DNA of 64,000 nt from Candidatus Poribacteria bacterium (GTDB lineage: Bacteria; Poribacteria; WGA-4E; WGA-3G): contig OZ242029.1 of the NCBI GenBank assembly GCA_965205015.1, positions 1,664,001-1,728,000 of the forward strand, written 5' to 3'. Below, piece by piece: positions 26,483 to 49,842 of this stretch. The notes under the pieces are model-generated. The model was given only the letters and a program-made list of their open reading frames with translations, did no database searches and had not been told where the DNA came from. The position numbers and the translations under genes were made by a program. The first letter of the stretch is position 1; each line of letters begins with the position of its first letter.

Positions 26483-28804
26483 CTACAAAAAATAGCCGAG
26501 GTCCTGAATGAATGTCCGATTTGTTGCAGCAAATGCAAGGTATTGCGGGGACATGCTTAGAGAAGTGATTGCCTCATTATTAATCATCTCAGCTGGTATC
26601 TCCAGCAAATCATACTTCTTAATTCCTCGAAATTTTGTTTCCGCGAACAACTTTCGCCAATGGGGTTTCCAGTATAGACGCTTATTGAGAAAAACTGCGC
26701 GCATAAAAGAGGAATCTATAGTCATGCGACATAATTTTCTATCTTTTGTGGCTACTATAAAATGGTTGAAATCAAAATACGGCCTATCAATGTCATCTGC
26801 CAGGTCATTTGTAATGATAGAAGTAAATTCATCACGCAATTTCCAACTATAATGCGGATGTTCCGTGGTTCCAATCCGCCACATTTTAAATAGGTTATCC
26901 GTATCTTTTGATAACCAGAACTTCCCGAAGTGGCCGTGCTTGATAAAACCTACCCAAGTAACAGGGGCCGAATGTCGCCTCCAAACAGACTCTTCTTTAT
27001 CAACCCATGGTAGGTGAAGTTGGACTGTTCCATCTTGCCCCGCAGAGGCGATGTGTCCACCATCGGACGACCATGAGACCCAATTAACCCATCCTTTATG
27101 TCTGCTAAGTGTTTGCTTATTTTTTTTCTCAACTACGTCCCACAATTTAATGGTCTTGTCCCGACTACCCGAGACGAGAAACGGGCCGTCGGGGGCAAAC
27201 GCAATAGAGGTAATAAAGTCAGTGTGCTCCGTGAGTTCAGCGGATCTCCGAGTTTTTAGTTCATGCAATTGGATAGAGTTTTCCGCCGCTACGGCTAAGA
27301 ACATGCTGTCGCTGGAAAAAGCAACGGAAGTGACCGCATACCCAGCATCCAAGACATACGCAGCATCGACAAACGGACCCTCCAAAAGGACAGGTTTCCG
27401 CGTTCTCTTCGCGGAAACATCTATCTCCGCGGAAACATCCCATAGATAGACAGTTGAACCTGTCACTGTCGCGAGGTGTTTGCTATCTGGAGAAATGGCA
27501 ACCGACGATACAGCGTTAGGGTGGTCAATGATTGCCTGCCCGCTTTCCGTGTACGTAACAGTAGGGTTGTCGGTTGTATCCTTCTTTTTCTTTCTGATCG
27601 AGGGGGTGTCATGCTTGTCCTCTTTTTTCTCGGTTGTGATCGAGGGGGTGTCATGCTTGTCCTCTTTTTTCTCGGTTGCGAGGATCTTCAGAGGGCCTCG
27701 CACGGGAGCGTATTCGGTCTCAGGCATGGATTCAAACACTGTAAGTCCGAAAGAATTTTCAAGGTGAATTTTCAAGCCTGGGAGCCTTGAACTACCCCCT
27801 ACCAAGTGGATTACCGGTTCTTCTCTGCCCTTATCCTTCAGTTCCGCTTTAATCCTTTCTATATGAGGCTTAACTGCCTCGCCTATACGCTCGACTTGTG
27901 TATCAATAATCGGCTGAATATCGTCTTTGGTCAATACGACTGTTTGTCCTCGGAGGACGGATATCTGGTGCCTTAAGCTGTCCCAACTTTCGGGATAATC
28001 ACAATATTCCTCTTTACAGCGGCGGACCTGCCTCCGGAAAAATATTCTGTCTGCCGCTACTTGGTTGCTATTGTTGCTTTTTCTTTTGACAACCTTAAGC
28101 AGCTCGGCGTCCACATCTCTGCCTCCGATTGTTTTGCAGTCTGTGATTTCTATATTGTAGGGATTGCTATCGTCCTCTGAACGGTGTAGATAACTAAAGT
28201 CTAATGTCCAGCCCCCGCAGTCCAGGATCACAATGTCATCCGTAGTTTTTGCGCCCATGGCTTGAAACATCTGTGCTGCTGCTAAAGGCTCCGCTACGAC
28301 CTCGATCGTCTCGAACCCTGCGTTCTTGGCACTTGTCATCAAAATTGCTATCTGATCAGAGTCATATCGTGGGGTATACGTGAGATAGACTGTAGTTGGC
28401 GGCTTCCTTCCAACAAAAACAGGATGCTTTCTTGCCTTTTCGCACAGTTCGGTAAGGAATACAGTCATTAGGTGTTCCGAGGGGTTTGTCTTGCTGGGAT
28501 CTACGCCGAGTAACTTAGAAAGTCGTTTTTGATACCTCCCCAAATCCCTTTTAAAATCCAGTATGGGATTCCATTTTCTTGAAGTTGTTTTAAGTTTCAA
28601 GTCGTGTTCAATGATACGTTCAGCTTCTTCACCTACAATTATCTTTCCGGAGTTCTTTTCACTGGCAAAAACACTCGGAGTGTAAGGCTTAGAGTTCTCT
28701 CCCCACGTCATGAGTTCTATTTGCTCTGTATTTGGATTATAGAACGCCATTTTCGTGCGTGTATGGCCGAAATCTATAGAAACTGCGTCGTTAATATCAG
28801 TCAT
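26483..28804 (-). CDS. Hsp70-family NBD fused to WD40 repeats
   Basis: SIDFGHT, EPLAAA, LDCGGWTLD, GGRDVD, LVGGSSRLP. WD40s such as EHTDFITSIAFAPDG...LVSGSRDKTIKLWD. Confidence 0.85.
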   Translation of the reverse strand: MTDINDAVSIDFGHTRTKMAFYNPNTEQIELMTWGENSKPYTPSVFASEKNSGKIIVGEEAERIIEHDLKLKTTSRKWNPILDFKRDLGRYQKRLSKLLGVDPSKTNPSEHLMTVFLTELCEKARKHPVFVGRKPPTTVYLTYTPRYDSDQIAILMTSAKNAGFETIEVVAEPLAAAQMFQAMGAKTTDDIVILDCGGWTLDFSYLHRSEDDSNPYNIEITDCKTIGGRDVDAELLKVVKRKSNNSNQVAADRIFFRRQVRRCKEEYCDYPESWDSLRHQISVLRGQTVVLTKDDIQPIIDTQVERIGEAVKPHIERIKAELKDKGREEPVIHLVGGSSRLPGLKIHLENSFGLTVFESMPETEYAPVRGPLKILATEKKEDKHDTPSITTEKKEDKHDTPSIRKKKKDTTDNPTVTYTESGQAIIDHPNAVSSVAISPDSKHLATVTGSTVYLWDVSAEIDVSAKRTRKPVLLEGPFVDAAYVLDAGYAVTSVAFSSDSMFLAVAAENSIQLHELKTRRSAELTEHTDFITSIAFAPDGPFLVSGSRDKTIKLWDVVEKKNKQTLSRHKGWVNWVSWSSDGGHIASAGQDGTVQLHLPWVDKEESVWRRHSAPVTWVGFIKHGHFGKFWLSKDTDNLFKMWRIGTTEHPHYSWKLRDEFTSIITNDLADDIDRPYFDFNHFIVATKDRKLCRMTIDSSFMRAVFLNKRLYWKPHWRKLFAETKFRGIKKYDLLEIPAEMINNEAITSLSMSPQYLAFAATNRTFIQDLGYFL
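27595..27678. repeat. 42-bp tandem duplication in the Hsp70-WD40 linker
   Basis: Two copies encoding TEKKEDKHDTPSI. Confidence 0.85.
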
Positions 28805-28827
28805 TTTGCATTTTCCCCTTGGATTCG

Positions 28828-30609
28828 TTAAAGGCGTTCATATATAGTGCCAAGTCGAAGAGTCGCATGGTCAAGAATCTGATTCAATTCATTGGAACTC
28901 GCCCCATACCTCTCAGTTTCCCAGTAGTCCAAAAGTTCCGAACACTTTTTCTCCTTTTCCGCGGACGTTGAACCGTTAGAAATTCTAAGACGTCTTGAAA
29001 CAGATGTCCCGTTTTGTCCGAAGAGACGCTGGAGTTCTTGTTTCTTTTGATTCGTTATTTCAGAATCCCCAAGCGTGTTCAAAAGATTGAGGCATCTGAT
29101 GTCTTCCTCAAAGAGGTGCGCGTTTTCTTCAATTTTGGCTTTCGTCTGGTGAAGGCTTTCCAACAATTGGTGAATTTGTGCTATTCGCTCTTCTATACTC
29201 GGTATCAAGTCGTTGAGATAGTTTTCGGATGTCTCGTATACATCATAAATCGTGGGCCATGCTGATTCCTTGAGATACGTTTCTAAGGTTTCAAGGTCTT
29301 TAACAATTTGAGGCGTGGCAGCGAATACCTCTTTCCAAGTATGACTGGAATCTTCTACCCGTTGTTTTTCTTGCTTCCAATCCGCCTTGAGTTCCGCTTG
29401 AGCGTGGCGAAACGCTTCGACAGCTACTGGGAAATCCCTGATCCCTTCTCGTGTTTTCGCCAGAACTTTCCGAAAGTTTTCTACAAGTTCCTGGCGTTTT
29501 TGCAAATCACTCTCAAGAGATTCCCGCAACTCCCTAAGCGTGTGTAGATGCGATACAATCGTTTGTAAGATTTTCCTGCTTTCACTCGCAGTGATTCCGG
29601 TTTCGGATTTCAAACTATCCCTTATTTCGGGTTTCAAACTATCCCTAAATTTTTCACCGCCCTGTTTGTGTGCTTCTTCCGCTTCGACACTGTCTTTTAG
29701 GATTTCCACTGCTTTTTCATACACATTTGATACAATTCTGTAGACAGTTAAGACTTTGAGCAGATGAGGGTCAGGGAGATAGGATAATTGTTTTTGCAAA
29801 GCTTCGGTTTCATGCGTGAGAAGTAAAGGAGGTGCCTCGCTTCCGAATTCTTCACGGAGCAATTCACACTTTCTTTCGGCGTTTCCATCTGAGGATTGGA
29901 CGACAATGATGCTGGCTTCGGGGAGAATGCCAAGTGTCTGTTTGTATTCACCAAATTTTGCGCGAATGCTGCGAACAGTTGCCGGATGCACGTCAGAAAT
30001 CACATAAATAAGTACGTGTGGAATAACCCCGTGCTGCGTTGTTGCTGCGTGTTCGCCGTGAAGGAATTGCTGGATTTCTGCGTCAAGGTGTTGCTGCGTG
30101 CTGCCTATGCCGGGGGTATCAATGAGAGCAATATTGTGGCTTCTGAGAAATTCTGAGTTCACAAAAAAGTCTATCAAAGCGGTTTCCGAGACGTTCTTGC
30201 CGCCTGCAATCCAGTCTTTAAGGGTCTCGTTAACATCCTCAAGTGCCAGATCCTCATGCTCCCTCTTGCGCCAATGGACCCGAAACTTATCGGATTGTTT
30301 TTCACTGCCGTATTGGAAGCGATTGATTGTTTCTGTGGTTACAGTATACCCTATAGGCGCACACGTCTCACCGACCATTTCATTTAAGAGGGTTGATTTT
30401 CCTGCTCCTTGTGGGCCCAGGAGAACACCAACGATGGGTTCCTTAGACATTTGCGCACTGAATACAGAAGCCAATCGCGCCTTCAGTTTCCTTGCAAATT
30501 CGGCAGTTTTAGGGTAGGAAAGCAGAAGTTCACAAACATCTTCTGCAAACTCGCGGACGAGTTTTTCGAGGTCTCCGGCGGAAATAGCGTAAGGATTTGG
30601 TGTCGTCAT
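28828..30609 (-). CDS. dynamin-like GTPase, IniC-like
   Basis: GPQGAGKSTLLN, DTPGIGS. C-terminal RLFGQNGTSVSRRL resembles my recollection of the IniC tail. Confidence 0.75.
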   Translation of the reverse strand: MTTPNPYAISAGDLEKLVREFAEDVCELLLSYPKTAEFARKLKARLASVFSAQMSKEPIVGVLLGPQGAGKSTLLNEMVGETCAPIGYTVTTETINRFQYGSEKQSDKFRVHWRKREHEDLALEDVNETLKDWIAGGKNVSETALIDFFVNSEFLRSHNIALIDTPGIGSTQQHLDAEIQQFLHGEHAATTQHGVIPHVLIYVISDVHPATVRSIRAKFGEYKQTLGILPEASIIVVQSSDGNAERKCELLREEFGSEAPPLLLTHETEALQKQLSYLPDPHLLKVLTVYRIVSNVYEKAVEILKDSVEAEEAHKQGGEKFRDSLKPEIRDSLKSETGITASESRKILQTIVSHLHTLRELRESLESDLQKRQELVENFRKVLAKTREGIRDFPVAVEAFRHAQAELKADWKQEKQRVEDSSHTWKEVFAATPQIVKDLETLETYLKESAWPTIYDVYETSENYLNDLIPSIEERIAQIHQLLESLHQTKAKIEENAHLFEEDIRCLNLLNTLGDSEITNQKKQELQRLFGQNGTSVSRRLRISNGSTSAEKEKKCSELLDYWETERYGASSNELNQILDHATLRLGTIYERL

Positions 30610-32759
30610 TGAAGGGATGTCTCCAACTCTTTTAAAGTCTCGTCAATGTTTTCCAATAATGTCTCTGCTCCAAGTTTTTGACTCTGGTGCTTTTGGCTTT
30701 CGGAACCCAAACTCCTGATTTTTTCCTCGGCTTCTTTCTCAAAACTTTCAAACTCGTTTCCCATTTCTGTTCTGTAAGTTCTAATCAGTTTCTCAAGTTC
30801 GCGATTCGTGTTGTCGTAGGCTAACGTTAGGATACCGTTCAAAATAGTTTCTATCTCAGCAGTTGTCTTTTCCCTTTGCATAATTTCTTCTTCGCGGACT
30901 TTGAAGACCGTTGAGATCGACCAAAGTGCACCCGCGGCAAGTGCCATCAAACCTGATGGCTCAACCAATGCTGCTGCACCCACACCCTTAAAAACTTTCT
31001 CAAAAGTACCTGAGGCTATCATCAGCGGGTACATGAGACTCTGCGGGGTTTGGCTCCGCCTCCACACACTATCGGGTAACTGACGAAGATTGTCTACATA
31101 GCGAATTGATAATTTAACCGCAGGGGATTCAACTGAACCTTCCCAGTGGCGCTGCATCTGCTCAGCTATATCGCGGCACAATTTATCCATGGATTCAATG
31201 TAAGAAAGAAAGATAGGCTCAATTTTCTTGAGGCACACGTCAACATAAAGCCGCTGAATCTCCTCTACCTCTGTTATCAGCCGTTTAGCCTTCATGTCCC
31301 TGAATTGATCCATGACTTCTGTGGTTATGGGTCTGTAGCCATACGCACCAAACGTCTCACTCATTCGGGTTTGTGTGTCTGAAGAAATATCTGCAGCTTT
31401 CTGGTCAAAAGTCGCTTTGAGGGGTTTATAGGTCTCGTTAAACCAGTTTTCAAATTTTGAGAGTTCCTCATTATTGAGACCAACGTGTAGTAGGAAGGTT
31501 TCAACCTCAAATTTGAGTTCCTGTAGAAAATCACGCGATCGGCTGTTGATTTCTTTATCGGTTTCACCCAACTTTTCTTCAAGAAATTCGAGCAGTTGAG
31601 AAAAGTTGCTGGCTTCCAGCGCCTTCTTTTTCTCATTTGGGTCCTGCGTTTGATCGGCCTTCCTTTTTTCTGTCGTACTGACTGAAAAATACTTGATATC
31701 TCCCGGCGGCAGGTCAAGCACTTCCGAAATGATTTGCACGTTGCTGCGCCGCTGTTCCTTCCATGCTCTCGTTTCTATGTATGTGTCGATTTTCGTTTGG
31801 ACGAAATAAATGGCATCTGTAATTGCGCGAAGTCGTTTTAAGGCTTCTTTTTCTGCCTGTGTTATTAGGCCGTTAAGGACAAAAAGAAAGGCGTTCCCAC
31901 TTAACAAGTAAGGCAACCTATCTTCGTCGTCGATCAAATCATCGAGATGTGGGGTGTCCATAATTGCAGTCCAGGTATGATGATTTTTCAAAAAGTCGTT
32001 GTGGTCGAGACCGATCAGGATAGATTTAACATCGTCTCGGTTCGCATAGTTAGCGACGGCTTGCGCATCAATCTTTTTATCATCCTTTTTGCCTGTTTTG
32101 GAGATGGCGGTGAACTCCTGTTTTCTTTTACCAATGAAGTCAGTAGGGGTCGTGAGGTCAGTAGGTGTAGGCGGCTTAATATCAAGTTTGTCTATTGTTT
32201 CTGTTGTGCCATCAATCTTTTTAAAAATAATTGTTTCGTCATCCGGGGTGTCTCGTTCGATCTGACCAATTTTCCTGTCGTCAAACGTGACAAGAGTGGA
32301 AAGGGATTTAGGAAGTTCCCGTTCTCCGTTACCAGTCTTGAGCGTAACGGTCGTTGGGGTTTCCGCAATGATTTCGCCATTTATTTTCTCATTCGTAGGA
32401 TCGACTGTTAATTCAGCGTAACCGCGCGCCATCAGATTGGCGAGGTCTTCCACCGGTTCATCGGATGCTGCCCAATGGAGGATTCTGTAAACCGTTGTGG
32501 TGTATGGGGAAAGCAGTTTTGGTTCTTCGAGTATGCCGCAAATCAGCTGCGATTTGCCGACCCCCGGTTTTCCACTGGTAACAACGAGGTTGAATTGCTG
32601 GAAATCATAGTCGTCCTTAATTTCCTTAATGCGGTCGGCTGTTTCTGGCACTTCGCTCACGAGGTTTACAAATTTCTGTGCGTAATCGCTGATTATTACC
32701 CGAAAATTTTTCGGCGACTTTTCCTGTGGCTTCTCTTCTTGTGGATTTGAGTGTATCAT
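30606..32759 (-). CDS. dynamin-like GTPase, IniA-like, with a C-terminal hydrophobic segment
   Basis: GKPGVGKS, DTPH, QTKID, FSVS. Hydrophobic GVGAAALV...ALAAGALW. ATGA overlap with the next gene. Confidence 0.8.
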   Translation of the reverse strand: MIHSNPQEEKPQEKSPKNFRVIISDYAQKFVNLVSEVPETADRIKEIKDDYDFQQFNLVVTSGKPGVGKSQLICGILEEPKLLSPYTTTVYRILHWAASDEPVEDLANLMARGYAELTVDPTNEKINGEIIAETPTTVTLKTGNGERELPKSLSTLVTFDDRKIGQIERDTPDDETIIFKKIDGTTETIDKLDIKPPTPTDLTTPTDFIGKRKQEFTAISKTGKKDDKKIDAQAVANYANRDDVKSILIGLDHNDFLKNHHTWTAIMDTPHLDDLIDDEDRLPYLLSGNAFLFVLNGLITQAEKEALKRLRAITDAIYFVQTKIDTYIETRAWKEQRRSNVQIISEVLDLPPGDIKYFSVSTTEKRKADQTQDPNEKKKALEASNFSQLLEFLEEKLGETDKEINSRSRDFLQELKFEVETFLLHVGLNNEELSKFENWFNETYKPLKATFDQKAADISSDTQTRMSETFGAYGYRPITTEVMDQFRDMKAKRLITEVEEIQRLYVDVCLKKIEPIFLSYIESMDKLCRDIAEQMQRHWEGSVESPAVKLSIRYVDNLRQLPDSVWRRSQTPQSLMYPLMIASGTFEKVFKGVGAAALVEPSGLMALAAGALWSISTVFKVREEEIMQREKTTAEIETILNGILTLAYDNTNRELEKLIRTYRTEMGNEFESFEKEAEEKIRSLGSESQKHQSQKLGAETLLENIDETLKELETSLQ

Positions 32760-32874
32760 AGCGTTTCCTGATGATCACAGAAGGGTTGGTGTGTCGTGGA
32801 TGTACTATAACATTCACGACACACAACCGCTATTGAAAAGTTTTAAGAATTTACGCTGTCAATAGATAGTAACT

Positions 32875-34059
32875 TTATCTGTTTCGGAAACGCTCGTTTC
32901 GCTCCTGTTCCGTCATCGTCGATGGCGACCTTTCGGATTCGTGCGACGGCGCGGCATGCCTTGTGACGACAGCAGAACGTCCGGAATCTTCCCAGGCATC
33001 CATAAATTGTGCCATCGGGATTTTTCGCTCGACTCCAGAATCATTGACGACGGCCATCACATTGTCGGGGGCACTCCGATCAACGCCGACAAATACCACA
33101 ACGTAATTCGCACCCCGTCCGGCATCGAAATCGTCATCATAATCTGTTATCAAAGGCACCAACTCATCTCTGTCTATTATAAGTATTGAAACACGTCCTT
33201 CTTGTCTGAGAACCTCCAGTTCATTTACCGTTAACTCCGACATGCGGTCGATCGGAATTTCGAATCTCTCTAAAATATTTCCCACCTGTACAGAAGTTAC
33301 CTCATACGGAGGAAGTACCCCAAACGATGATCCCTGAAACGAACCGTCGACAAGGGCACGAATGGTGAGCCCAGTTTCCGAGACATCTCTCCCATACTCA
33401 GCAAGCACCATCTTTTCTGTAGCTACGATGGGGTCTTCTGACATTTGGCATTTGACGTCATTAAAAGTCCCAGATTCGATGGCTTGGTCAATGCGATTCA
33501 AAAATATGGAGTGCACTTCTGGCGAGAGCGGAATGTTCTGAAGAACCCCAGCTTCTACAATATTCAGTTTTTTATCTGCAACTATCTCATGAAGCACCTT
33601 GACTGCTGTATCAAGGTCAACATTGCGATTAATCTCGCTATCCCTATTTGGGTAGGTGGGCCCCGATTTATCCGAGGTCATCTCCCCAGCCCCATTTCGG
33701 CCAAAGATTTTCTCGCGGACTTCGTCCCCAGTAACCTGCCCATCGTTATTGAGGTCGAAAAGTACCCGGGAGACTTCGTTGAGAGTAACCACTCCATTTT
33801 CGTCTAAGTCGTATTCCTTGTATTTCTGTGTAAGATAGGCAATGCCCTCAATGACGGCTCTGATAATGTTATCGATTGCTATCGATGACCACCTAACATT
33901 CGCCAACGGAGCCGTATGCCCGGAGCCAGTCGAAGTGTGCCCGTTTTCCATTGCGCCGCTACCCATGTGTTGATTCTGTGTGATGGCTATCTGATCTTCC
34001 TTCTCACGTGAGTCTTCATTCTCAGAGTCTTCGGCATTTTCTAATATTTCTTCTAACAT
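32875..34059 (-). CDS. EF-hand plus C39/papain-like domain protein, probably catalytically inactive
   Basis: DLDENGVVTLNE and DLNNDGQVTGDE. Paralogue of 34355 lacking the Cys and His. Start MLEEIL after GGAG. Confidence 0.7.
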   Translation of the reverse strand: MLEEILENAEDSENEDSREKEDQIAITQNQHMGSGAMENGHTSTGSGHTAPLANVRWSSIAIDNIIRAVIEGIAYLTQKYKEYDLDENGVVTLNEVSRVLFDLNNDGQVTGDEVREKIFGRNGAGEMTSDKSGPTYPNRDSEINRNVDLDTAVKVLHEIVADKKLNIVEAGVLQNIPLSPEVHSIFLNRIDQAIESGTFNDVKCQMSEDPIVATEKMVLAEYGRDVSETGLTIRALVDGSFQGSSFGVLPPYEVTSVQVGNILERFEIPIDRMSELTVNELEVLRQEGRVSILIIDRDELVPLITDYDDDFDAGRGANYVVVFVGVDRSAPDNVMAVVNDSGVERKIPMAQFMDAWEDSGRSAVVTRHAAPSHESERSPSTMTEQERNERFRNR

Positions 34060-34354
34060 TTTTTGGGTCTCCAGATTTGTAACGATAGAAGTTAGGGGGG
34101 CTGTTCCCAGTCCTACTGGTGCTAAACTTGTATTGCACAGCATCCATTGGAAACACAGCAACAAATTTCGGAAACATAAGCTGCATAAATAAAGTTGTGG
34201 AGCATCAGGATAATGGGTATGCTTTAATGAAACCACCCATATAAGGCATACCCGATGTATTATCCTGACAGAAAAGCGTATATCACATTTCTGTTTTCTT
34301 TGCTTGATGGGTTTGCAAAAAAACAAACGCCTATCAGCAGAGGGAGACCGAACT

Positions 34355-35626
34355 TTACCTGTTTCGGAAACGCTCGTTTCGCTCCTGTTCCGTCATCGTC
34401 GATGGCGACATTTCGCATTGGAGCGGCGGAACAGGTTCTGTTGTCACGACAGCATAATTCCCAGCGTCTGCCCAGGCATCCATAAACCGATCGAGCGGAA
34501 TAGCACTTTCTTTTCCGTCCTTAGTGCCGGAATCATTAACGATGACCATGGGGTTATCGGGATCGCTGCGATCGACTCGGATAAATACAACTACGTGATT
34601 GTCACCCCGTCCCTTATCTTCATTGTCATCATATACCCATTTTTCATCTTTCCGCCAGATCTCATCTGCGTCTAACCCAATTATGGGGACACGTCCTTCT
34701 TTTCTGAGATTCTCAAGTTGTTCTATTGTCGCATATGGTAGCTCGACAGTCGGAATACCAAATCGCTCTAAAATTTTTCCGACAAAGAGCGGATTCATCC
34801 CTTCCTGTGGACCTTCGAGCGTTCCGTCTATAAGCGCACGGATGGTGAGAGCAGCTTCCGAGACATATATTCCATACTCAGCAAGCACCATTTTTTGCAC
34901 AACGACGACACAGTTCTCCAACATTTGGTTTTTATAAATCTGGCATTTGACATCATCAAAGACACCAGATTTGATGTCTTGGTCAATTTGAGCCAAAACG
35001 ACTACTCTCGCTGATGGCGAGAGATAAATGGACTGAAGAACAAAAGCCTCTGCAATATCCAGTTCTTTATCTGCAGCGAGGTCATGAATGACCTTGACGA
35101 CTGTATCAACATCAGGATTGAGGTCTCTTACTGATGTTAACGTGTCTTTGAACGCTTTTAAATGCGCCTTAAACAACGCATCCGCCTTGGTCTTAAATGC
35201 CTGATTGTATTCGTCTTTAGTAACATGCCCATCCTCATTTAAATCTGCGACCTTTTTTCTTTCCTCTTCAGTAATCTCCCCATTCTTATTTAGGTCGAAA
35301 ATTGCTTGGCGGCGTTCCTCAGGAGTAGCCTCCCCATCCTTATTTAGGTCGAAAGCTGCCAACCAGATGTCGTTATTAGTAATACGCCCGTTCTTATCTC
35401 TGTCGTATTTCCGAATCTCACGAATTGCTTCTTTGATAACGTCCTCATCCGACATTCTGGCTTCACCGTTACCGGTAGACGAACGCGTATGCCCGGAGGC
35501 ATCCCGAGTTTGCACGCGTTGTGCCGCATGGTTATCCATGGGTGGATCCGATGGGGGTATCACGAGTTCATCACGGGGGTCTTCATGTTCACCTGGGTCT
35601 GTATGTTCAAAAGGGTCGAACGACAT
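34355..35626 (-). CDS. EF-hand repeats plus C39/papain-like cysteine peptidase
   Basis: Four DxNxxGxxTxxE-type loops. QMLENC, DNHVVVF, VNDSG, FMDAWAD. Confidence 0.8.
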   Translation of the reverse strand: MSFDPFEHTDPGEHEDPRDELVIPPSDPPMDNHAAQRVQTRDASGHTRSSTGNGEARMSDEDVIKEAIREIRKYDRDKNGRITNNDIWLAAFDLNKDGEATPEERRQAIFDLNKNGEITEEERKKVADLNEDGHVTKDEYNQAFKTKADALFKAHLKAFKDTLTSVRDLNPDVDTVVKVIHDLAADKELDIAEAFVLQSIYLSPSARVVVLAQIDQDIKSGVFDDVKCQIYKNQMLENCVVVVQKMVLAEYGIYVSEAALTIRALIDGTLEGPQEGMNPLFVGKILERFGIPTVELPYATIEQLENLRKEGRVPIIGLDADEIWRKDEKWVYDDNEDKGRGDNHVVVFIRVDRSDPDNPMVIVNDSGTKDGKESAIPLDRFMDAWADAGNYAVVTTEPVPPLQCEMSPSTMTEQERNERFRNR

Positions 35627-40262: not shown

Positions 40263-40300
40263 GATGTCTTCCCCTATTGTTGACTTTCATCGGTAGTGAG

Positions 40301-40394
40301 GTGATTTAGGGTTTCCTGTCTGATTAACGCCTACTATTATAAGGTGTGATGGCGTATAAAGCGGACAAAAGGGAAAAATATGCGAATTTTCATT
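40301..40394. repeat. 94-bp direct repeat, copy 1, containing the promoter-like motif on the minus strand
   Basis: Matches 59644-59737 with 3 mismatches. Confidence 0.9.
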
Positions 40395-40556
40395 CAGTCC
40401 CAATGGACGAGACCGCCCGCCTCTGGGACCGGGAGACAGGGACCTGTCGTTGTGGTCGAGATCTGTGCCTGCTTTCTGCAGATTTCGCGATGGAATTATT
40501 GATCGCTCTCGTCTATATTTATACTTTACGTTAATTTTCTCAATAGGGAGTAAAAA

Positions 40557-42677
40557 ATGACTAACACTCACCCCTATCTTGAAGTTGCAGATAGGATGAA
40601 TACAATAGTCACTCTCGTGGGTAAGCGGACTGAGGGAGTTGTCTCACTGCCAGAGGGACCATCGATTGTCGATCCCGGACTCGGGCTTGAAAGTCGCGCC
40701 GCAGAACTTTCCGAGAATGCCGAAAACTTAAAGACGGGAACGACCCGTATTGCCGTGGTTGGGGGCGTATCGGCAGGCAAGACGACCCTCTTATGCGCGA
40801 TCACGGGGTTGGAGCTTCCCATGGGTGTGGACGCGAAGACGGGGGTCATTACCGAAATCGTGCCCGGAAACGACCCGAATACAGTAGAGGTCTTCTATAC
40901 CGGCCCCACGAAAAAAAACATGTCGATGGCGGAATTTAAAACGTTTTCTGCCTTGCCTGCAGGTTCTATCGAGAGTGGGAATCCGTTTCCTTTACCCCCA
41001 CATCTGATAAATGTGAGTTCGGCAAGAGTTCAATCGTCCTCAGCATTTTCTCGAGAGGGTGTTACCCTAATAGACACGCTCGGTTTCGGTGCTGGTCAAC
41101 TGACCGCAGATGTCACGCGAGAGAAACTGCGAACGACAGATATCGCTGTTTTGGTTCTCGGCACGCGGCCGCCGTTCAGTAATGATGATGTTACGTTCGT
41201 ACTGGAGCAGCTCGCCGAAGCGCAGATCAACGATTCAAAACTTCGGCATATCTTCTGGGTTTTCAACGATTTTAGCCTACGCGAAGAGGAGAAGGCTGAA
41301 GTATGGGACTCGGCACGTGTCAAACTTAAGGGGTTCCTTGATGAGGAAGACTTTGAAAAGCAGGTTTTCATGGTTGATGCCCTTAAAGCGTTAGCGGCAC
41401 GGCAAAATTCCGAGACGGGTGAAACGCTCGAACGCACAGGGCTACCCGCATTTGAACGCGAGATAAAAAAGGCGTTACAAGGAGGGAAGCAGCGAGTCAT
41501 GGAATCGGTTGTTGCCCGCCAAATTGCTCCGGTTATCCGGGTAGCGCGGGCGGAAATCCGAAAGCAGACAACGGCATTGGATCTCGGTGCTGAACCCTTA
41601 GAAAAAGCCGTCGCCGAAGGGCAAGAAGCCCTGAAAACCAGTAGAGAAAAGGCGAAGGTGCTGCTCCGTGAGCTGAATAGCACGCGCGACGCATTCATCG
41701 ATGTTGTTGTCTCTAATTACATGCATTACTTTTCCGGATTGTCCAATGAGGCGTGGGAGAAAGCATGGACTGAAGTCTCTCCGAAGATCGGCATGCTCGA
41801 ATTTGCGGTCAGTGTATTTTTTAAGGGACGGCGTGAACGGCTGGAAGCCCGTTTGAAGGAACCCCTTGAACGGCTAATTGGTGGAAAATTAGAGGAATGG
41901 GGTGACCAACTCCCAACAGTTGTATCATCGAAACTTCAAGCCTCGTTTCAAGAGTTTGAGGATCTTGCGATGGATTTCGCTGAGTCCCTTGTGGATGTCG
42001 ATGAAAACCTTGTTAAGAGTTTGAATATTGACCCCGAAGACTTGGATGTAACTGACAGAGAAGCGAATGCGAAACGGGTATTTCAAATGCTATTGGGTGT
42101 CTTGCTCTTAGATCCCTCTCAATTTGTAGGTACCCTGTATGCTTCCAATTGGGGGGCGTTCGTTAGACGAATGGTCGTTGAAATCATCGTTGTTGGGGGA
42201 GCAATGATTTTGTTCGGACCCGTGGGGCTAATTGCTGCTCTCGGCGTGCTGATTGCTGAATTTGTGCTAAATCTTCTTATGGATCAAGGGAGTCGCAAGG
42301 ATCGGCTCGCCACCCACGTGGCTCTTAAGATTCGTGAACAGTTCACAGCGGAAAGTGGCAAAATCACCGATCACATCAGGTCTCAGCTCATTGACCATTT
42401 TAAAGAGGTCTACAATAAACTTGATGCCCTGCTGAACCAGGAAATCTCCGAACGCGAACGACAACTTGACGAGCTTCTCTCCCGCAAGAACAGTGAGAGT
42501 TCCACTGCTGATGCGGAACGCGAACGCCTGCATGGAATAAATGCCGCTATCACCCACCAGTGGGAGGCTATCAGCAAACTCGTTTACGGCAAGGTCATTG
42601 ACGAGACCATTGACGAGACAGAGATTCGCGCCGGCATTGAAGATGCGGATGATCTGCTCGGCACACCCGTAGCGTGA
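40557..42677 (+). CDS. bacterial dynamin-like protein with a membrane paddle
   Basis: GGVSAGKT, KTG, DTLGFG, FWVFN, VDALKAL. Hydrophobic IIVVGGAMILFGPVGLIAALGVLIA. Confidence 0.85.
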   Translation: MTNTHPYLEVADRMNTIVTLVGKRTEGVVSLPEGPSIVDPGLGLESRAAELSENAENLKTGTTRIAVVGGVSAGKTTLLCAITGLELPMGVDAKTGVITEIVPGNDPNTVEVFYTGPTKKNMSMAEFKTFSALPAGSIESGNPFPLPPHLINVSSARVQSSSAFSREGVTLIDTLGFGAGQLTADVTREKLRTTDIAVLVLGTRPPFSNDDVTFVLEQLAEAQINDSKLRHIFWVFNDFSLREEEKAEVWDSARVKLKGFLDEEDFEKQVFMVDALKALAARQNSETGETLERTGLPAFEREIKKALQGGKQRVMESVVARQIAPVIRVARAEIRKQTTALDLGAEPLEKAVAEGQEALKTSREKAKVLLRELNSTRDAFIDVVVSNYMHYFSGLSNEAWEKAWTEVSPKIGMLEFAVSVFFKGRRERLEARLKEPLERLIGGKLEEWGDQLPTVVSSKLQASFQEFEDLAMDFAESLVDVDENLVKSLNIDPEDLDVTDREANAKRVFQMLLGVLLLDPSQFVGTLYASNWGAFVRRMVVEIIVVGGAMILFGPVGLIAALGVLIAEFVLNLLMDQGSRKDRLATHVALKIREQFTAESGKITDHIRSQLIDHFKEVYNKLDALLNQEISERERQLDELLSRKNSESSTADAERERLHGINAAITHQWEAISKLVYGKVIDETIDETEIRAGIEDADDLLGTPVA

Positions 42678-42749
42678 CACCGAGACTGAAATACATTCAA
42701 AGGCGGCGGTTGCAAACGCAGTGTCGTCCATACACTCAGGACCCTCTAT

Positions 42750-43388: not shown

Positions 43389-43522
43389 GGGTTCTCAGTA
43401 ACGCGTTGTGGCAGTAACTGACAATTCGACTCAAGTTTCGCGATGGGATTTGGCGCGCCGTCCGTCTTATATTGTAAACGAATCACAGGATTTGGGGACC
43501 TCCGACAAGGAAAGAGAATTAG

Positions 43523-44026
43523 ATGACAAAAGAGCAGTACAACACATGCTATAACACAGGCACCTATCGGACCGCGCCCTACGGTGAGCTCGTTGAAGCT
43601 TATGCGCTCGGGCTATTAGCACATAAAGACGCAGCACAAACGGTGCGGGAATCGGTTTATGAACAAGCGTTTGAACTCGCTGCCGATCTTGACATGACAG
43701 CCTCGACGAAATTGTGGGTCCTGTTTCGGGATCTTACACGGGAGTTGTGTATGAAAATGTTGCAGTTGCCTGAAGCGGAAAATCCACTGGCGCGCCTTGA
43801 TTCCGGGGATTCTGCAGTGCCTACCACCAAACTGGAGGTGTTTTATCAATTGCTACGAGAGGTGCCTTTCGACTGTAAGCGCGTTCTGCTCTTGACTTAC
43901 CTATTTGAAGAAAGGCCGGAACAGATTGCCTCTATCCTAAGTAAACCGCTTGAAGAAGTGCGTGATCTCATGGATAGAGGGAATGCTGAGTTAGGTGTGG
44001 CGTTTCTTCGTGTGCCTATGCGTTAG
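43523..44026 (+). CDS. small sigma-region-4-like protein, paralogue of 17233
   Basis: Same length (167 aa), highly similar sequence. Confidence 0.7.
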   Translation: MTKEQYNTCYNTGTYRTAPYGELVEAYALGLLAHKDAAQTVRESVYEQAFELAADLDMTASTKLWVLFRDLTRELCMKMLQLPEAENPLARLDSGDSAVPTTKLEVFYQLLREVPFDCKRVLLLTYLFEERPEQIASILSKPLEEVRDLMDRGNAELGVAFLRVPMR

Positions 44027-44128
44027 TACCTGCTACGGATGCTGCATGAGGTGTTCACTATAGTGCGTATTTTACTGGATGTGTCGTGTGCTACGGATGG
44101 AAAGTGAATGCTACGAAAAGGTGAATAA

Positions 44129-44671
44129 ATGACCAAAGACGATTTCCACTTGTCCTATAACAAAAACACGAAAGATCGTAAAGCTTTGGGGGCGTCCGTC
44201 TTGGCATTTGCCTACCGGATCATTCCAGATGCCGACGCAGCGTGGGAAATTCGGGATGAGGTGATGGGAATTGGTCTCAAGCGGTGTGCCGAATTTGAAG
44301 TAGAGACTGCTTGGGAGGGGAAAAGGCACTGGCCTGGCTTAAAAAAAATAACACGGCACCGCTGCGAACGCATGATCTTGCGTCCAGAGGCGGAGAATCC
44401 ACTGGCGAAAGCGACGTTAAAGCAGTGGATGGAGGATCCGTGGGCAGCCGCGATCGCGAAGTTATCTTTCAATCATCGACAAATCTTTCTTTTATGCACG
44501 GGATTCGGCGGCAATTCGCGAAGCATACACAGTCTCCTCAATAAGCACAGAGCCAAAAACGGGAAAAAACTCACACAAAAAGAGGTTAAAAACCTTCAGG
44601 CAGAAGCATTAGCACTTATAGTAGCAGGTTTCACGGAATCTTATTTCCCTGAATTTTTAAAGGACTGCTAA
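44129..44671 (+). CDS. small sigma-like protein, paralogue of 17851
   Basis: Highly similar sequence and same gene order. Confidence 0.65.
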   Translation: MTKDDFHLSYNKNTKDRKALGASVLAFAYRIIPDADAAWEIRDEVMGIGLKRCAEFEVETAWEGKRHWPGLKKITRHRCERMILRPEAENPLAKATLKQWMEDPWAAAIAKLSFNHRQIFLLCTGFGGNSRSIHSLLNKHRAKNGKKLTQKEVKNLQAEALALIVAGFTESYFPEFLKDC

Positions 44672-44683
44672 AAGGAGAATCCC

Positions 44684-46078
44684 TTGGACGGAATTAAATA
44701 TCCTATCGTGTTGCGCGAATGCAGACGCTTAATTCACGATGATATAGATGCGAACGAAGTCGCAGCTGCTCTCTATAAACGTGGTATCCCTACCGAAAAT
44801 GTGAGTCAACACATATACAATTCCCTGGTGGCATGCTGGGATACCACACCAGACTGGGACGATCCCGCATTTATGAAAATTATCAAAGCAGTGGTGAATC
44901 CAACTGCCCGAAAAGTCGCTGGTTTTGAAGCCGCAAAGACCGCCTATGATTTGCTTGAATATCCAGAGCAGGATCTTTTGAAATTCAAAGGTATCGAGGG
45001 TTTATCGGAGAAAACCATTGCCCAAGTCTCCAGGACACCGCTTGACCAGGTTAAACGGGATGCCACATCAGCGAAGGACACGTTTTGGAAACTTTTCACG
45101 CGTGAGCGGTGGTCCACGCTGGCGTACTTTATCGAAAAACTTTGTGAAGATGCTGATTCATCTTCTCCTGACGTCCTCAAGGTTGAAGCAGAGTACCTCG
45201 CGGCTAAAGGCGCTTATGATTCCCTGGATGCGATAGAGAGAGAAGTCTTGAGACAGCGGTGCGTGCAAGGACGCTCTGTAGAAGCGATCGCGTCCGAACA
45301 GCAGACTTCACTTCTTGAGATTTCTGAAATCTTGGCAAATGCCCGTGAAGCATTCTATGATAAATTTTTGACCGAAATTTATCACCGATGGGTTCTGGAT
45401 AAAGCGTATAAGATCCGAGCCGATGAGGATGCTATAGAAGATGCCTTGACGAATCTGCAAGAGCGACTTTACAAATTCGTCCCAGAAAACTACCAGGGAT
45501 GGTTAACCAAGTCTGCCAAAAGTTTGAGCCTCGATTCGAAAAAAAAAGAGAATCGCCACGGATATATCGCCCAAAAGCGCGGGCGCGTCTATGTAAATGC
45601 TGAAGGTGAATCTGTCTATGTTCTCAGCACGACCGCGGATTCGTTAGAGCCGCATGAAGAAATAGAGAAAGCAGAAGCGGAAAAGAAGGAGTTACGGTTT
45701 TGGGAGCGTGAAAGGAAACGTTGGCACCAATTGCTAACAAAGACCGCTAGGGCGATTTTAAGGTCTAAAAAACCGGAAAAAAAGTTGTTTCTTTTGACAC
45801 ATTACATTCTACAGCCGAAACTCAACGGGTTAAGAACAACTAAACCGGGTGCTATTTACGAATGTCAGTATCCCGGGGAAGCCATGGCAATCGCCCACGT
45901 CCTTGACCAATATCGGTCAAAAGCCACGCAGGCGTGGGCCGGTGAAGTCATAGACGCCACGGATAGAAGCATCCGCCGCTACCTTGACGAAATCATCCCG
46001 CTTGTGAAGAGATATGCAGAAGAGGTCGGTATCAGCGCATCAGAACTCGTGAAAGGGTGTGCCCCGATAAAAGAATAG
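44684..46078 (+). CDS. multi-repeat sigma-like protein with two region-4 units, short paralogue of 18396
   Basis: MDGIKYP joined directly to the third repeat VLRECRRLIHDD. Confidence 0.75.
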   Translation: MDGIKYPIVLRECRRLIHDDIDANEVAAALYKRGIPTENVSQHIYNSLVACWDTTPDWDDPAFMKIIKAVVNPTARKVAGFEAAKTAYDLLEYPEQDLLKFKGIEGLSEKTIAQVSRTPLDQVKRDATSAKDTFWKLFTRERWSTLAYFIEKLCEDADSSSPDVLKVEAEYLAAKGAYDSLDAIEREVLRQRCVQGRSVEAIASEQQTSLLEISEILANAREAFYDKFLTEIYHRWVLDKAYKIRADEDAIEDALTNLQERLYKFVPENYQGWLTKSAKSLSLDSKKKENRHGYIAQKRGRVYVNAEGESVYVLSTTADSLEPHEEIEKAEAEKKELRFWERERKRWHQLLTKTARAILRSKKPEKKLFLLTHYILQPKLNGLRTTKPGAIYECQYPGEAMAIAHVLDQYRSKATQAWAGEVIDATDRSIRRYLDEIIPLVKRYAEEVGISASELVKGCAPIKE

Positions 46079-46118
46079 GACGCCTAAATGTGTCCCTAAA
46101 CCCCAGCCAGATTTACCT

Positions 46119-46151
46119 TTTTGTCCGATTCCTACCCGGTTATCCCTTAAG
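46119..46151 (+). promoter_or_regulatory. putative promoter, copy 3
   Basis: ttttgtccg-N18-cttaag conserved although the spacer differs at several positions. Confidence 0.55.
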
Positions 46152-46291
46152 GGTCTTGAGAGGCATCAGTCTACAGTTTTCAGTCGAGAGATCGTTGTAG
46201 TATTTACAAACGGTTGCACAATTACACGATTCACTGGCGACTGACAACTCTTAAAACTGACAACTGATAATCATAAAAAGGAGAAAATAAG

Positions 46292-46861
46292 ATGAGTACG
46301 AAAGTACAAAACCACGCGACCGAATGCAATATCCGCGTGAAGTCTGGAGATTTAGCAGCTCAAGGCAAAGGAACGATGGCTATTCTGCCCCTGACTGGCA
46401 ATCAAGTCTCCGTCAAAGTACTACTTCCAACGGAGACAGGTGTCCCGGAACCTTTGGATTTGACAGCCGTAGAACGTGTCGAGCTGGTGGCAAAAAAAAA
46501 CGGCTGGTTCAGCAAGAACCAGTGGGGAACACCGCTGTTTACCACGGTTGGTGCTTTTATTGGTGTTCCAGTCGTAATTTTCGCATTGGTAGAGGTGACA
46601 GAGGCTACTGCTTTACTTATCGGCGGAACTTGGCTCGGTGCCACCTACGCTTCCGGAGTTTACACAGGGTCGAAACTCACACGCTTGGCGAGATTCGTTG
46701 TGACGACAAAAGATGGCAAGCATGCTGTGCTTGAGGCACCCGAGCCTGTGTTTGGTTTTTTGAATGGTGTCTATACTGCGCCAAACATCCAGCTGGACGA
46801 CGCAACGGTACCTGAAACCTCGGCAGCACCTGCGGCAGATCCTGCACCCGCAGCGGCTTAA
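46292..46861 (+). CDS. membrane-hairpin protein, paralogue of 20745 and 22994
   Basis: IRVKSGDLAA, LDLTAVERVELV, RLARF, GVYTAPNIQL. Confidence 0.8.
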   Translation: MSTKVQNHATECNIRVKSGDLAAQGKGTMAILPLTGNQVSVKVLLPTETGVPEPLDLTAVERVELVAKKNGWFSKNQWGTPLFTTVGAFIGVPVVIFALVEVTEATALLIGGTWLGATYASGVYTGSKLTRLARFVVTTKDGKHAVLEAPEPVFGFLNGVYTAPNIQLDDATVPETSAAPAADPAPAAA

Positions 46862-46908
46862 AGGACATAACAGACGAGTGGGGCTTCCCGCCTCACTCGT
46901 TTTCAACG

Positions 46909-47148
46909 GGAATTTCAGGGGCGACCCTCCATGACATTATTATCACGGAAGGTATTCGGAATGCCGATGCTGTGATGTTTATCGTAAACCCGAAGCGGAT
47001 TGGTCAGTCAGATAAAGCCGTGTTAGTAGAACGGATTCGGGAGGCGATCAGTCTCGAGAGTATCCTCAAAGACACACCCGATTTTGTTGTGCGTCAGGAG
47101 ATTAACACACTTAATATGAAAATTGCAGAGCTCTCTGAAATTCGGTAA
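46909..47148 (+). pseudogene. deleted remnant of the 23897 dynamin-like gene
   Basis: GISGATLHDIIITEG...REAISL fused in frame to ESILKDT...RQEINTLNMKIAELSEIR*, matching about 24767-24913 and 26305-26398. Confidence 0.85.
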
Positions 47149-47200
47149 CACCGGTGTACACCGTTATACATCCGTTGACAAACACCTAAAGAGAGCGTAA

Positions 47201-47389
47201 GTCAGTTGTAGTGACGACGAGAGTATCCTGATCTGGGACGCAGAGACGGGCAGCCTCCTGCAGCAGGTCATAGGGCATACGGGACACGTGTGGAGAATCG
47301 CGTTCAGTCCGGATGGTAAAACCCTCGCCAGCTCAAGTAGTGATGGGACACTGCTGATCTGGGACCTCACCCATCTCAACGGCGAATAA
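47201..47389 (+). pseudogene. WD40 repeat fragment
   Basis: SDDESILIWDAETG...GHTGHVWRIAFSPDGKTLASSSSDGTLLIWD, preceded by an in-frame stop. Confidence 0.8.
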
Positions 47390-47409
47390 CGTGAAGCGGC
47401 ACTTCAATA

Positions 47410-49842
47410 TTAGTTTGCCGATCGCTCTGTGATAGACTGGCAGAGTTTCTCAGCGGTAGTTATGAAAGCTTTGACAACTGTATACCGGATGTAAGCCTTA
47501 AACTCATTTCTTGATACTACATTGGATACTACATTGGAGGAACTTATAGCAGTGGGGGTCACCAATTCCTCGGCTCTCGCCTTGAACTTATTCTGCTCCC
47601 TCTCAAAACGAGTCATGTCAAACCCACTCGGGTCAGCCCCGTGTGCAAGCAATACTTCTACCGCGTCTAACGGATACGGATTAAACTCATCCGGATACGA
47701 CTGATGCCCATAACGCCAGGAGAAGTTGCCGGGGTCAGCCCCGTGTGCAAGCAATACCTCTATCGCCTCGGCTGCATTCTCCACTGCTGCACTATGCAAG
47801 GGGGGGTAGCCAAATGCAGTCTCAGCATTGGGGTCAGCCCCGTGTGCAAGCAATGCTTCTACCATCTCGGCTGCATTCTCTTCCGCTGCCCTATGCAAAG
47901 CGGTCCTACCAGATTCCTCCTTAGCGTTGAGGTCAGCCCATAACTGCCCACGCCATCTTTCTACCATTTCAAATGCATTCTCTGATGTCTCCGGATACAG
48001 GAGAAGTGGGGTAATGTCATGTGCAGTATCAGGTGTGAAGTACTTCCGCATCGGCTTGAAGAACTCCGTCAATGCGTCATGGATCTCGCTCCGTACCTCC
48101 TTTCGCCTTGACTCGGCTTTCCTCTGTAGCCTGGACCTTTTCTTGTCGAAGCCTGCTACGATGATTGGTATTATTTCCGATGCAGCACCAGCAGCAACAC
48201 CTCTCATAATTCGGCGAAACTTTACTGTATCCTTAATCTTCTTCCTTATATCAATTTGAATTAGTGTTTCATCTAGTAGGCTCCGAACAACTTGCTTCAC
48301 ATCTTTCTTATAGGTGTCATGAACTTGAAGGGCTTCTCTCCCTAATTCTCTGTAGAAACCAGAAAATTCTTCTTGAAAAAATTCAGAAACTTCGTCAACC
48401 TTCCAGAATATAGAATCGAGTTCCTCAACAAAGTAGGAAATGATGTTCTGTCTTACTGTCTCATGATCCCATCCAGCCTCATCAGACCCCTTTTTCGGCA
48501 CATAGCACGAGTCGGCTCCTCCTATGTCCAAATTCCAGTTGTAACGCTCCCCAGACAATAACTCCATAAGACAAGACATCACGTCGTTGGCGATTGTGGC
48601 ACCAATCTTTTTGCCGAATGTGTCAAATGTCTCTTTAATAGCGGTTATCTCTTCATGCTTAGCGGTTCCTATACGTTCACTTTGCTGGGTTTGCATGTGC
48701 TCAGAAAGTTTACTTCTAACTTTCTCAGAGAGAGGGACAGCCCCAAGCACTGTAGCGTACTCAAAGTCGAGCATTGTAATGCAGTCGAGTCCAAATTTTT
48801 CATTCAGGGCAGTCGCGAAACTTTCAATTTGTGCACAACCGCCTGTTAGCACGAGTGCTGGTTTTCTGCCCGTCTCCTTAACAACATTGTTTATGTAGGG
48901 TTCAACTACGTCGCACGCAGGTGTAATATAATTTTTCTCAATGGCTGATTCAATTTCGCGTGCACTCAATGGCACTGAAAAATTCTCCTCAATTTCTATG
49001 GGACGCGGTTGATCATTCGGGTTTCGGCAAAGTGCCTCTTTACGTAATTTGGCTTCGTGACACAAAAACTCAAAGTCATCTTCTGTTATTCTGGTTCCCT
49101 CCTTCATCCTGTTCCTCAATCGATTTTGGAGCGTGCGTGCCAAGTCGACTTCGATATTTCTTCCGCCAACAGTTCGGGTTCCACCCGCCTTAAGTTTACC
49201 CGATTCGCCTTCTTCTCGCATGTACTTCGGCTTACTACGATAGATATACTGCCGATGCATATATGTCCAATGCAGTGTCCCCGCTCCACAGTCCAGAAGA
49301 ATAATATCTGCCGGCAGGTCCTCCTTCCATCTCTCAACGAATTGGGCTGCTGCTATAGGTTCTTCTATCAATTCGACCGAAAACCCGGCTGCCTGAGCAG
49401 AAGCCTTCAATATATTATCTCGTTCGTTCTTTGTGAAGGTACAGGGATGCGTGAGATAGGCTATCTCAGGTTCACTCTCAAAAGCAGAACATTTTCCTGC
49501 TTCTTTCTTGAGGTGTGTGAAAAGTGCTGTCAGCAATTCCTGAGGCGTTTTTTTAACGCGTCTAAAACGAGGCAACCGGAACAGTATAAACTTCTCAGAA
49601 ATTAGACCTTTAATATTGCTAATATTGCTTACAGCTTGTTGGCGGGTTTCTTCAGACTCAAACATCTTTTGAGCATCATAGCCAAGGAGGATTTCCTCAT
49701 CTTCGTTAAGAGCAAAGTATGATGGGAGGTAATTCTCGACACCATGGCGCATCAACTCTGCTTTTTCCGTTTTTGGATCGAAGTAGGCGAGTTTGGTTCT
49801 GCTGGTTCCAAAATCTATCGCCACGACAGAGTTCTTACGCAT
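47410..49842 (-). CDS. Hsp70-family NBD fused to a helical region and ankyrin repeats
   Basis: AIDFGTS, EEPIAAA, LDCGAGT, LTGGCAQI. Ankyrins GRTALHRAAEENAAEMVEALLAHGADPN and following. Confidence 0.85.
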   Translation of the reverse strand: MRKNSVVAIDFGTSRTKLAYFDPKTEKAELMRHGVENYLPSYFALNEDEEILLGYDAQKMFESEETRQQAVSNISNIKGLISEKFILFRLPRFRRVKKTPQELLTALFTHLKKEAGKCSAFESEPEIAYLTHPCTFTKNERDNILKASAQAAGFSVELIEEPIAAAQFVERWKEDLPADIILLDCGAGTLHWTYMHRQYIYRSKPKYMREEGESGKLKAGGTRTVGGRNIEVDLARTLQNRLRNRMKEGTRITEDDFEFLCHEAKLRKEALCRNPNDQPRPIEIEENFSVPLSAREIESAIEKNYITPACDVVEPYINNVVKETGRKPALVLTGGCAQIESFATALNEKFGLDCITMLDFEYATVLGAVPLSEKVRSKLSEHMQTQQSERIGTAKHEEITAIKETFDTFGKKIGATIANDVMSCLMELLSGERYNWNLDIGGADSCYVPKKGSDEAGWDHETVRQNIISYFVEELDSIFWKVDEVSEFFQEEFSGFYRELGREALQVHDTYKKDVKQVVRSLLDETLIQIDIRKKIKDTVKFRRIMRGVAAGAASEIIPIIVAGFDKKRSRLQRKAESRRKEVRSEIHDALTEFFKPMRKYFTPDTAHDITPLLLYPETSENAFEMVERWRGQLWADLNAKEESGRTALHRAAEENAAEMVEALLAHGADPNAETAFGYPPLHSAAVENAAEAIEVLLAHGADPGNFSWRYGHQSYPDEFNPYPLDAVEVLLAHGADPSGFDMTRFEREQNKFKARAEELVTPTAISSSNVVSNVVSRNEFKAYIRYTVVKAFITTAEKLCQSITERSAN

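Follow-up and report, generated by a model that had tools for sequence, protein, structure and literature searches.

The window considered here is a stretch of 64,000 nucleotides (nt) from a Candidatus Poribacteria bacterium (assembly GCA_965205015.1, contig OZ242029.1, positions 1,664,001 to 1,728,000 of the forward strand), in which 44 open reading frames (ORFs) were scanned with Pfam. It harbors two operons, both on the minus strand and both arranged in the order C39-like peptidase, dynamin A, dynamin B and, at the end, a protein in which an Hsp70-type nucleotide-binding domain (NBD) is joined to a tail. It is this last protein, and the family to which it belongs, that forms the subject of the present account. 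The Pfam HSP70 match ends at model position 354 of 599 in the operon 1 protein and at 199 of 599 in its operon 2 counterpart, and both therefore lack a substrate-binding domain, as the initial annotation had stated. The two NBDs are 29% identical over 388 columns (E 4e-35); a comparison of the two tails gave no significant match.

The operon 1 protein (26483-28804, 773 aa) begins with its NBD, residues 1-375 (27680..28804), as delimited by Pfam and the NBD alignment. Residues are numbered as in DnaK, and the numbers of K70, P143, E171 and D201 agree with PMC5240922. Equivalents of K70, E171, D194 and T199 are retained in this domain and, unusually, the T11 position holds His and the G198 position Trp. 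A charged linker follows (27533..27679), which is not of the hydrophobic DnaK type and contains a perfect 42-nt tandem pair (27595-27678), and then a WD40 tail of 349 residues (26483..27532; E 3e-30), whose size suggests a full propeller. The description of a WD40 domain behind a charged, duplicated linker is thus borne out.

The operon 2 protein (47410-49842, 810 aa) likewise starts with its NBD, residues 1-372 (48727..49842), placed by Pfam and an AlphaFold model; here the D201 position is His and the R345 position Gln. The model, built from aligned input, is confident for the NBD and the helices at 400-600 and good only to about residue 600. Its residues 1-380 match Hsp70 NBDs (BiP, Z 33.9, root-mean-square deviation 3.4, 354 residues aligned), and it shows the tail to be helical rather than a beta-sandwich. 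According to alignment and model, the tail consists of an all-helical part common to ankyrin-less relatives (48043..48726), ankyrin repeats at about residues 601-770 (47533..48042; E 5e-15; two full units and one degenerate) and a terminal helix (47410..47532) that, by eye, matches the C-terminal helix of those relatives; the boundaries of the ankyrin region were also read by eye, as the aligner misplaced the last helix. The same helical tail occurs without ankyrins in 12 close relatives, so that two of 14 proteins with this tail carry ankyrins. To judge from these sequences, the ankyrins are a later insertion within a helical tail and do not replace a WD40 domain. The direct exchange of WD40 for ankyrin that had been proposed gives way to one between WD40 and a helical domain, with ankyrins inserted afterwards. 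The number of ankyrin units also varies among members of the P0013 cluster, two of the four possibly being cut short.

The helical region, the ankyrins and the thrice-repeated 24-mer of the earlier description are all real. The three exact copies of the 24-mer (47630, 47732 and 47831; spacing 102 and 99 nt) each encode LLAHGADP, with which an ankyrin unit ends, and therefore reflect intragenic duplication of the repeat rather than a separate DNA element. The hydrophobic patch described with them is weak, as a membrane segment is predicted in one of the two ankyrin-bearing relatives and in none of the 12 ankyrin-less ones. Derivation of the helical tail from a dynamin stalk was considered and found no support (hhalign probability 1.5% and 0.2%).

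Upstream of the NBD gene in operon 1 lie dynamin B (28828..30609), with P-loop and G3 motif and a conserved C-terminal helical domain, and dynamin A (30606..32759), with a divergent P-loop and a G4 motif (TKID). They are preceded by two C39-like peptidase genes. The first (34355..35626) encodes the Cys, His and Asp of the catalytic triad and four EF-hand-like motifs; the second (32875..34326, start codon uncertain) has lost the catalytic Cys and His and carries two such motifs. In operon 2, dynamin B (49835..51196) has lost its G domain and kept the C-terminal domain, dynamin A (51202..52929) has lost the G1, G3 and G4 motifs, and an acidic protein with a C39-like domain (53020..54750) retains the triad. 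PF13529 (Peptidase_C39_2) is matched by all four family peptidases examined (E 5e-6 to 8e-3). Calcium sensing was rejected as a family trait, as the EF-hand motifs are confined to the operon 1 copies and absent from all non-window peptidases compared. Most family peptidases have at their C-terminus a short conserved helix that may be a docking peptide; the operon 2 copy lacks it.

The NBD family and its exchangeable tails

Two scans of sequence collections yielded 77 loci, of which 35 were kept as family members by profile score and 42 set aside as ordinary or distant Hsp70 matches; some of the 35 come from one genome or sample and are not all independent. A profile search with the NBD then supplied the best 150 representatives, each scoring at least 290 bits; 137 new homologues were scanned with Pfam and their tails tallied by hand, and an NBD tree of 172 rows was built. 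The family is well separated, its members scoring about 290-490 bits as against at most 154 for DnaK-type proteins. Equivalents of K70, G196, G341 and G342 occur in all 172 rows, E171 in 171 and D194 in 170. The hydrophobic linker motif of DnaK, found in five of five DnaK-type controls, is seen in one of 159 tails. More than 40 residues precede the NBD in only eight of the 172 rows, one of them a DnaK fusion.

Tabulation of the C-terminal domains, which the initial annotation had suggested, revealed no fixed architecture, and Pfam found no substrate-binding domain among the 137 homologues apart from two DnaK fusions. The tails comprise Sel1 repeats (17), TPR (13), FGE (12), dynamin (5), WD40 (4), Lcl_C, beta-helix, zinc ribbon and other GTPase domains (2 each), and GYF_2, Ig and H-lectin (1 each), with 75 bearing no Pfam name. 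When tail changes are counted by type on the tree, with no shuffle control, they number 18 over 20 rows for FGE, 17 over 19 for Sel1, 8 over 15 for TPR and 6 over 9 for WD40. Both window NBDs fall within one 22-row clade (support 99) in which WD40, FGE and helical tails all occur. Tails without a BLAST match to one another were found in 6 of 19 pairs at 80% NBD identity or above and in 23 of 46 pairs at 70-80%, the pairs being overlapping and some short tails possibly truncated. Tandem NBD copies with different tails also sit inside single loci (L006, L007, L026 and L033). Taken together, these comparisons indicate that tails have repeatedly been exchanged among NBDs of the family.

No nuclease, TIR or SIR2 domain occurs among the Pfam-named tails, and a sensor or decoy therefore fits better than a toxin. 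Nearly all tails with a name are binding modules, which also favors a sensor over an effector; of the modular "sensor or effector slot" first proposed, modularity and the sensor half are thus the better founded.

A number of tails appear to have been captured (P0128, P0099, P0083, P0170 and L028:6945-9146), with CobW and GTPase domains among them; pilin-like, second Hsp70-like and ROK-kinase-like tails in the same set were recognized by eye. A small helical module directly after the NBD in P0027, P0045, P0089, P0109, P0144 and others resembles a TerB half-domain. In L026:7617-9912, several small acidic genes separate two NBD genes with different tails. In L031:2674-5366, an NBD-FGE gene is followed by bAvd and then, near the contig end, by the start of what is presumably a reverse transcriptase; a diversity-generating retroelement (DGR) acting on the FGE tail is likely at this locus.

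Change of the tail over short distances is apparent at operon 1 itself. P0002 shares 355 of 375 NBD residues with the operon 1 protein and 174 of 349 residues of the WD40 tail. In run X5, a sponge metagenome, one contig spans the operon 1 locus: its flanks differ at 19 of 920 nt and 161 of 5285 nt (about 2-3%), and its tail shows about 14% differences plus gaps where it can be aligned, with four stretches that cannot be aligned at 85%. P0002 and X5 are counted as one case because they are possibly one strain. Runs X4 and X6 are near-identical to the window where they cover it, and X8 barely reached the tail; P0007 is 99% identical to the operon 2 protein throughout. On these alignments, the operon 1 WD40 tail is hypervariable between close relatives. 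A DGR is an unlikely cause of this variation, given its many indels and the lack of any reverse transcriptase among the 44 ORFs.

The order peptidase, dynamin A, dynamin B, NBD is complete in 15 of the 35 family loci, nine of which were not seeds of the profiles, and at least one partner gene accompanies the NBD in 28. Operon carriers include Poribacteria, Planctomycetota, Cloacimonadota, Myxococcales and the Gamma- and Alphaproteobacteria (Chromatiaceae and Belnapia among the carriers); cultured examples are Belnapia mucosa T6 and Aporhodopirellula aestuarii. Because the full order recurs across several phyla, it is not specific to sponges, and the sponge-symbiont setting in which the proteins were originally placed is not supported. 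Within the phylum of the window the family was detected in at least 1 of 150 genomes, a search in which at most 13 candidates were scored per genome so that an undercount is possible, and within its genus in only 3 of 60. A search of a plasmid collection gave no NBD match and eight dynamin B matches, all weak. In an actinobacterial analogue (L023:6544-11905), a dynamin B-like and a dynamin A-like gene are followed by that of a more distant Hsp70 whose tail is membrane-anchored.

Ties to the dynamins and surrounding genes

Three kinds of evidence tie the NBD to the dynamins. The first is fusion of the two, seen in 5 of the 137 homologues and in L089. In P0133 the NBD is fused to a full dynamin A (493 bits), and relatives of a third dynamin type, encoded in the window at 40557..42677 on the plus strand, are fused to it in P0162, P0140 and P0157. 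The second is that, in operon 2, L001 and L091, the gene directly ahead of the NBD gene encodes a dynamin B without its G domain in which the C-terminal part persists. The GTPase-less state of the dynamins is common to operon 2 and L001, whose NBDs are 58% identical; the first gene of L001 has no peptidase domain.

The third is a predicted complex between the NBD and dynamin B of L003, a pair homologous to those of the window. It scored 0.86, as against 0.00 for the best of three controls, with contact agreement of at least 87% and partner pLDDT of at least 87; the mark used for a complex was reached by 116 of 157 solved pairs and 2 of 215 mismatched pairs, counts that are only rough with the alignment used. 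The predicted contacts involve dynamin B residues 385-396, 447-458 and 524-557, in the C-terminal domain and stalk, and NBD segments 65-87, 127-132, 199-207 and 219-242. By sequence alignment, without superposition, NBD 127-132 and 199-207 correspond to the 'PAYF' and 'EV..T.GD' regions of Hsp70, in which, according to the available text of PMC5240922, DnaK residues D148, V218 and T221 touch the substrate domain in the ATP state. The NBD is thereby predicted to bind dynamin B on the face that DnaK uses for its substrate domain.

Each window operon is approached from the other strand by a further unit. A single dynamin-like gene (23897..26398, plus strand) converges on operon 1, an arrangement also found in L001. 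A duplicated cassette of sigma-70 region-4-like genes and small unknown genes (17233-23575 and 42750-46861) leads to a single dynamin and converges on each operon, again as in L001. At operon 2 only the remnant of a deleted dynamin gene is left (46909..47150, plus strand; 78% identical to two parts of 23897-26398), and it is followed on the plus strand by a WD40 fragment (47201..47389; 62 codons, no start codon). The orphan WD40 noted earlier is therefore real and lies outside operon 2; because a free-standing FGE gene occupies the same place in L001, it can be assigned to a decayed convergent unit. As a donor of the operon 1 tail it was rejected, its likeness being that of generic repeats and weaker than that to unrelated WD40 tails.

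Two near-identical transfer-messenger RNA genes (55505-55836 and 57435-57766), each beside a PcfJ-like gene, possibly mark the integration site of an island. A 103-nt repeat, 95% identical between copies, lies near the middle of the island (40292-40394) and near its right end (59635-59737), and an ordinary pair of alpha-2-macroglobulin and PBP1C genes (6286-14930) is found upstream of it.

Possible roles of the system

The reading that we prefer, and in which belief and doubt are about evenly balanced, is that a lidless Hsp70 ATPase with an exchangeable tail acts as a sensor-adaptor that aims the membrane-remodeling dynamin pair at changing targets, probably invaders. The NBD would dock on dynamin B, at the stalk and C-terminal domain, by the face that DnaK reserves for its substrate domain, so that the dynamin would replace that domain in trans. 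Binding of a ligand to the tail would shift the nucleotide state of the NBD, and this switch would cause the heteromer of dynamins A and B to be recruited or released at the inner membrane; the peptidase may trim or reset a component, and the infection would be sealed, trapped or delayed. Operon 2 would represent a derived, likely GTPase-dead form that serves as scaffold or decoy. For systems in which the NTPase and peptidase stay constant while a non-enzymatic module varies, a role against invaders has been argued (PMC7159879, in the part available). The present family matches this pattern through its constant NTPase and peptidase, its fast-changing non-enzymatic module, its patchy distribution and its mobile neighbors; among 66 neighboring genes scanned were bAvd beside an FGE tail, a GAP1-N2 system, ParE, PIN, an integrase and an insertion sequence. 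More specifically, and as a tentative proposal held with some reserve, the system may be a bacterial immune system with an Hsp70 ATPase as receptor switch, in which the invader is sensed by a tail that evolves fast or has been captured, and the docking face known from DnaK serves to switch the dynamin pair.

Several observations weigh against this interpretation. ATP turnover by the operon 1 NBD is uncertain because of the His at T11 and the Trp at G198. Conservation at the predicted interface falls below the average (dynamin B, 0.39 against 0.53; NBD, 0.46 against 0.52), and most interface positions differ in the window copies, which may reflect either pair-specific co-evolution or a contact limited to some lineages. 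The NBD library consists of representatives at 50% identity and so over-samples differing tails, a bias of which the tandem copies with different tails are independent. Of the 172 tails, 78 carry no Pfam name, and the 66 neighbors were hand-picked from 129 with no control set. Finally, among solved structures the dynamins come closest to IniA (E 4e-41) and Cj-DLP2 (E 8e-20), with LeoA only weakly matched (E 3e-5), and by this analogy the closest structural relatives are proteins of envelope remodeling.

This last point leads to the strongest competing explanation, which we consider unlikely on balance but deserving of attention, namely that the same adaptor mechanism, common to both readings, serves envelope upkeep, be it the repair or tethering of membranes or the release of vesicles, the tails picking the site or cargo. 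Dynamin A finds its best solved match in IniA at full length and dynamin B in Cj-DLP2, and pairs of this type tether or cut membranes (PMC6104087 and PMC6715688, in the parts available). A membrane segment is predicted in 38 of 159 tails, the actinobacterial locus L023 places a dynamin pair ahead of an Hsp70 with a membrane tail, and the operon 1 peptidases carry EF-hand-like motifs, although these are missing from every non-window peptidase compared. Housekeeping repair would, however, not be expected to show so patchy a distribution (at least 1 of 150 and 3 of 60 genomes), nor a turnover of tails between near-identical strains. Alternatively, the end of the NBD gene could be a neutral recombination hotspot in mobile islands, with the window copies in decay, as might be read from the lost GTPase motifs of operon 2, the pseudogene remnant adjoining it, the inactive peptidase copy and the peptidase-less first gene of L001. 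We regard this as improbable, since every operon ORF is intact, the GTPase-less state is common to L001 despite only 58% NBD identity, tails are complete domains joined in frame, and none of the 172 rows departs from K70, G196, G341 and G342.

Eukaryote-like repeats are enriched in sponge symbionts, the nearest named relatives are Poribacteria and the locus is present in a sponge metagenome, all of which would suit proteins for manipulation of the host. Yet the family spans many non-sponge phyla, the NBD begins at the N-terminus and leaves no room for a signal peptide, and the ankyrin insertion is optional, being found in two of 14 proteins with the helical tail, which makes such a role very improbable. 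Least likely, in our estimate, is that the protein is a chaperone dedicated to the dynamins, which its new tail would hold as clients while they assemble: the Hsp70 fold and the predicted contact with dynamin B speak for it, but the DnaK linker motif is confined to 1 of 159 tails (5 of 5 controls), no GrpE or J-domain match was found among the 44 window ORFs and 66 neighbors, and a constant client has no need of a variable tail.

To the question of how bacterial dynamin pairs are targeted or triggered, the family contributes a candidate for the targeting subunit, a predicted interface and tails swapped in nature. If the sensor-adaptor reading is correct, an Hsp70 NBD has been reused as a signaling switch whose output is another protein instead of a substrate domain; were the receptor-switch proposal also to hold, the system would be a bacterial counterpart of Mx-like defense, with interchangeable and sometimes DGR-diversified sensors.

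Relation to known systems

IniA/IniC (PDB 6j72) and Cj-DLP1/DLP2 (PDB 5owv; PMC6104087, in part) also have two dynamins side by side. In contrast to these, the present operons add a C39-like peptidase and a lidless Hsp70 with a variable tail, and their G1, G3 and G4 motifs, present in the family and, in diverged form, in operon 1, are lost in operon 2. The available text of the IniA paper makes no mention of Hsp70 or DnaK. Eleos (LeoA with LeoBC) likewise consists of two dynamin-like genes, and all 14 dynamin A rows and 18 of the 19 dynamin B rows match the PADLOC LeoBC profile, for which no curated cut-off is given, albeit weakly (best E 6e-27 and 2e-10); the NCBIfam LeoA model is unmatched by the four dynamins of the window operons. 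As described in the accessible part of 10.1101/2022.05.11.491447, Eleos is a two-gene system without Hsp70 in which both P-loops are needed; it protects from jumbo phages by a mechanism that its discoverers call unknown.

The DO-GTPase/GAP1 and ternary conflict systems (PMC7159879, in the portion available) likewise combine a variable binding module with NTPase and peptidase parts that stay constant; some of them hold an Hsp70 without peptide-binding domain, and FGS tails there are linked to DGRs. DO-GTPases, however, form a family distinct from the dynamins considered here and have a GAP1 partner; in that portion the word 'dynamin' does not appear, and variability is placed on GAP1 or FNIII proteins. 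No GAP1 match was found among the 44 window ORFs. In L014:13715-20797, a separate GAP1-N2 conflict system follows immediately on the operon.

The likeness to NLR proteins remarked on in the initial annotation stands as an analogy, since NLR and STAND proteins likewise place an exchangeable C-terminal binding domain after an NTPase. It goes no further, as here the fold is of Hsp70 type with no STAND, the N-terminus carries no effector domain, repeats (TPR, Sel1, WD40 and ankyrin) account for only 45 of 172 tails, and a dynamin acting in trans is the likely output. In tripartite systems, according to the part available of 10.64898/2026.10.19.760177, STAND can give way to an HSP70-like domain. 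With DnaK, HscA and HscC the family has in common the NBD fold and catalytic motifs, but it lacks their substrate domain and linker.

The literature covered, which excluded subscription papers, yielded no description of the four-gene system, although one may be contained in the supplementary data of PMC7159879, of PMC8195603 or of the 2026 preprint. What is new here is the measured exchange of tails, the hypervariability at the level of a single locus, the fusions, the predicted docking site and the GTPase-less lineage.

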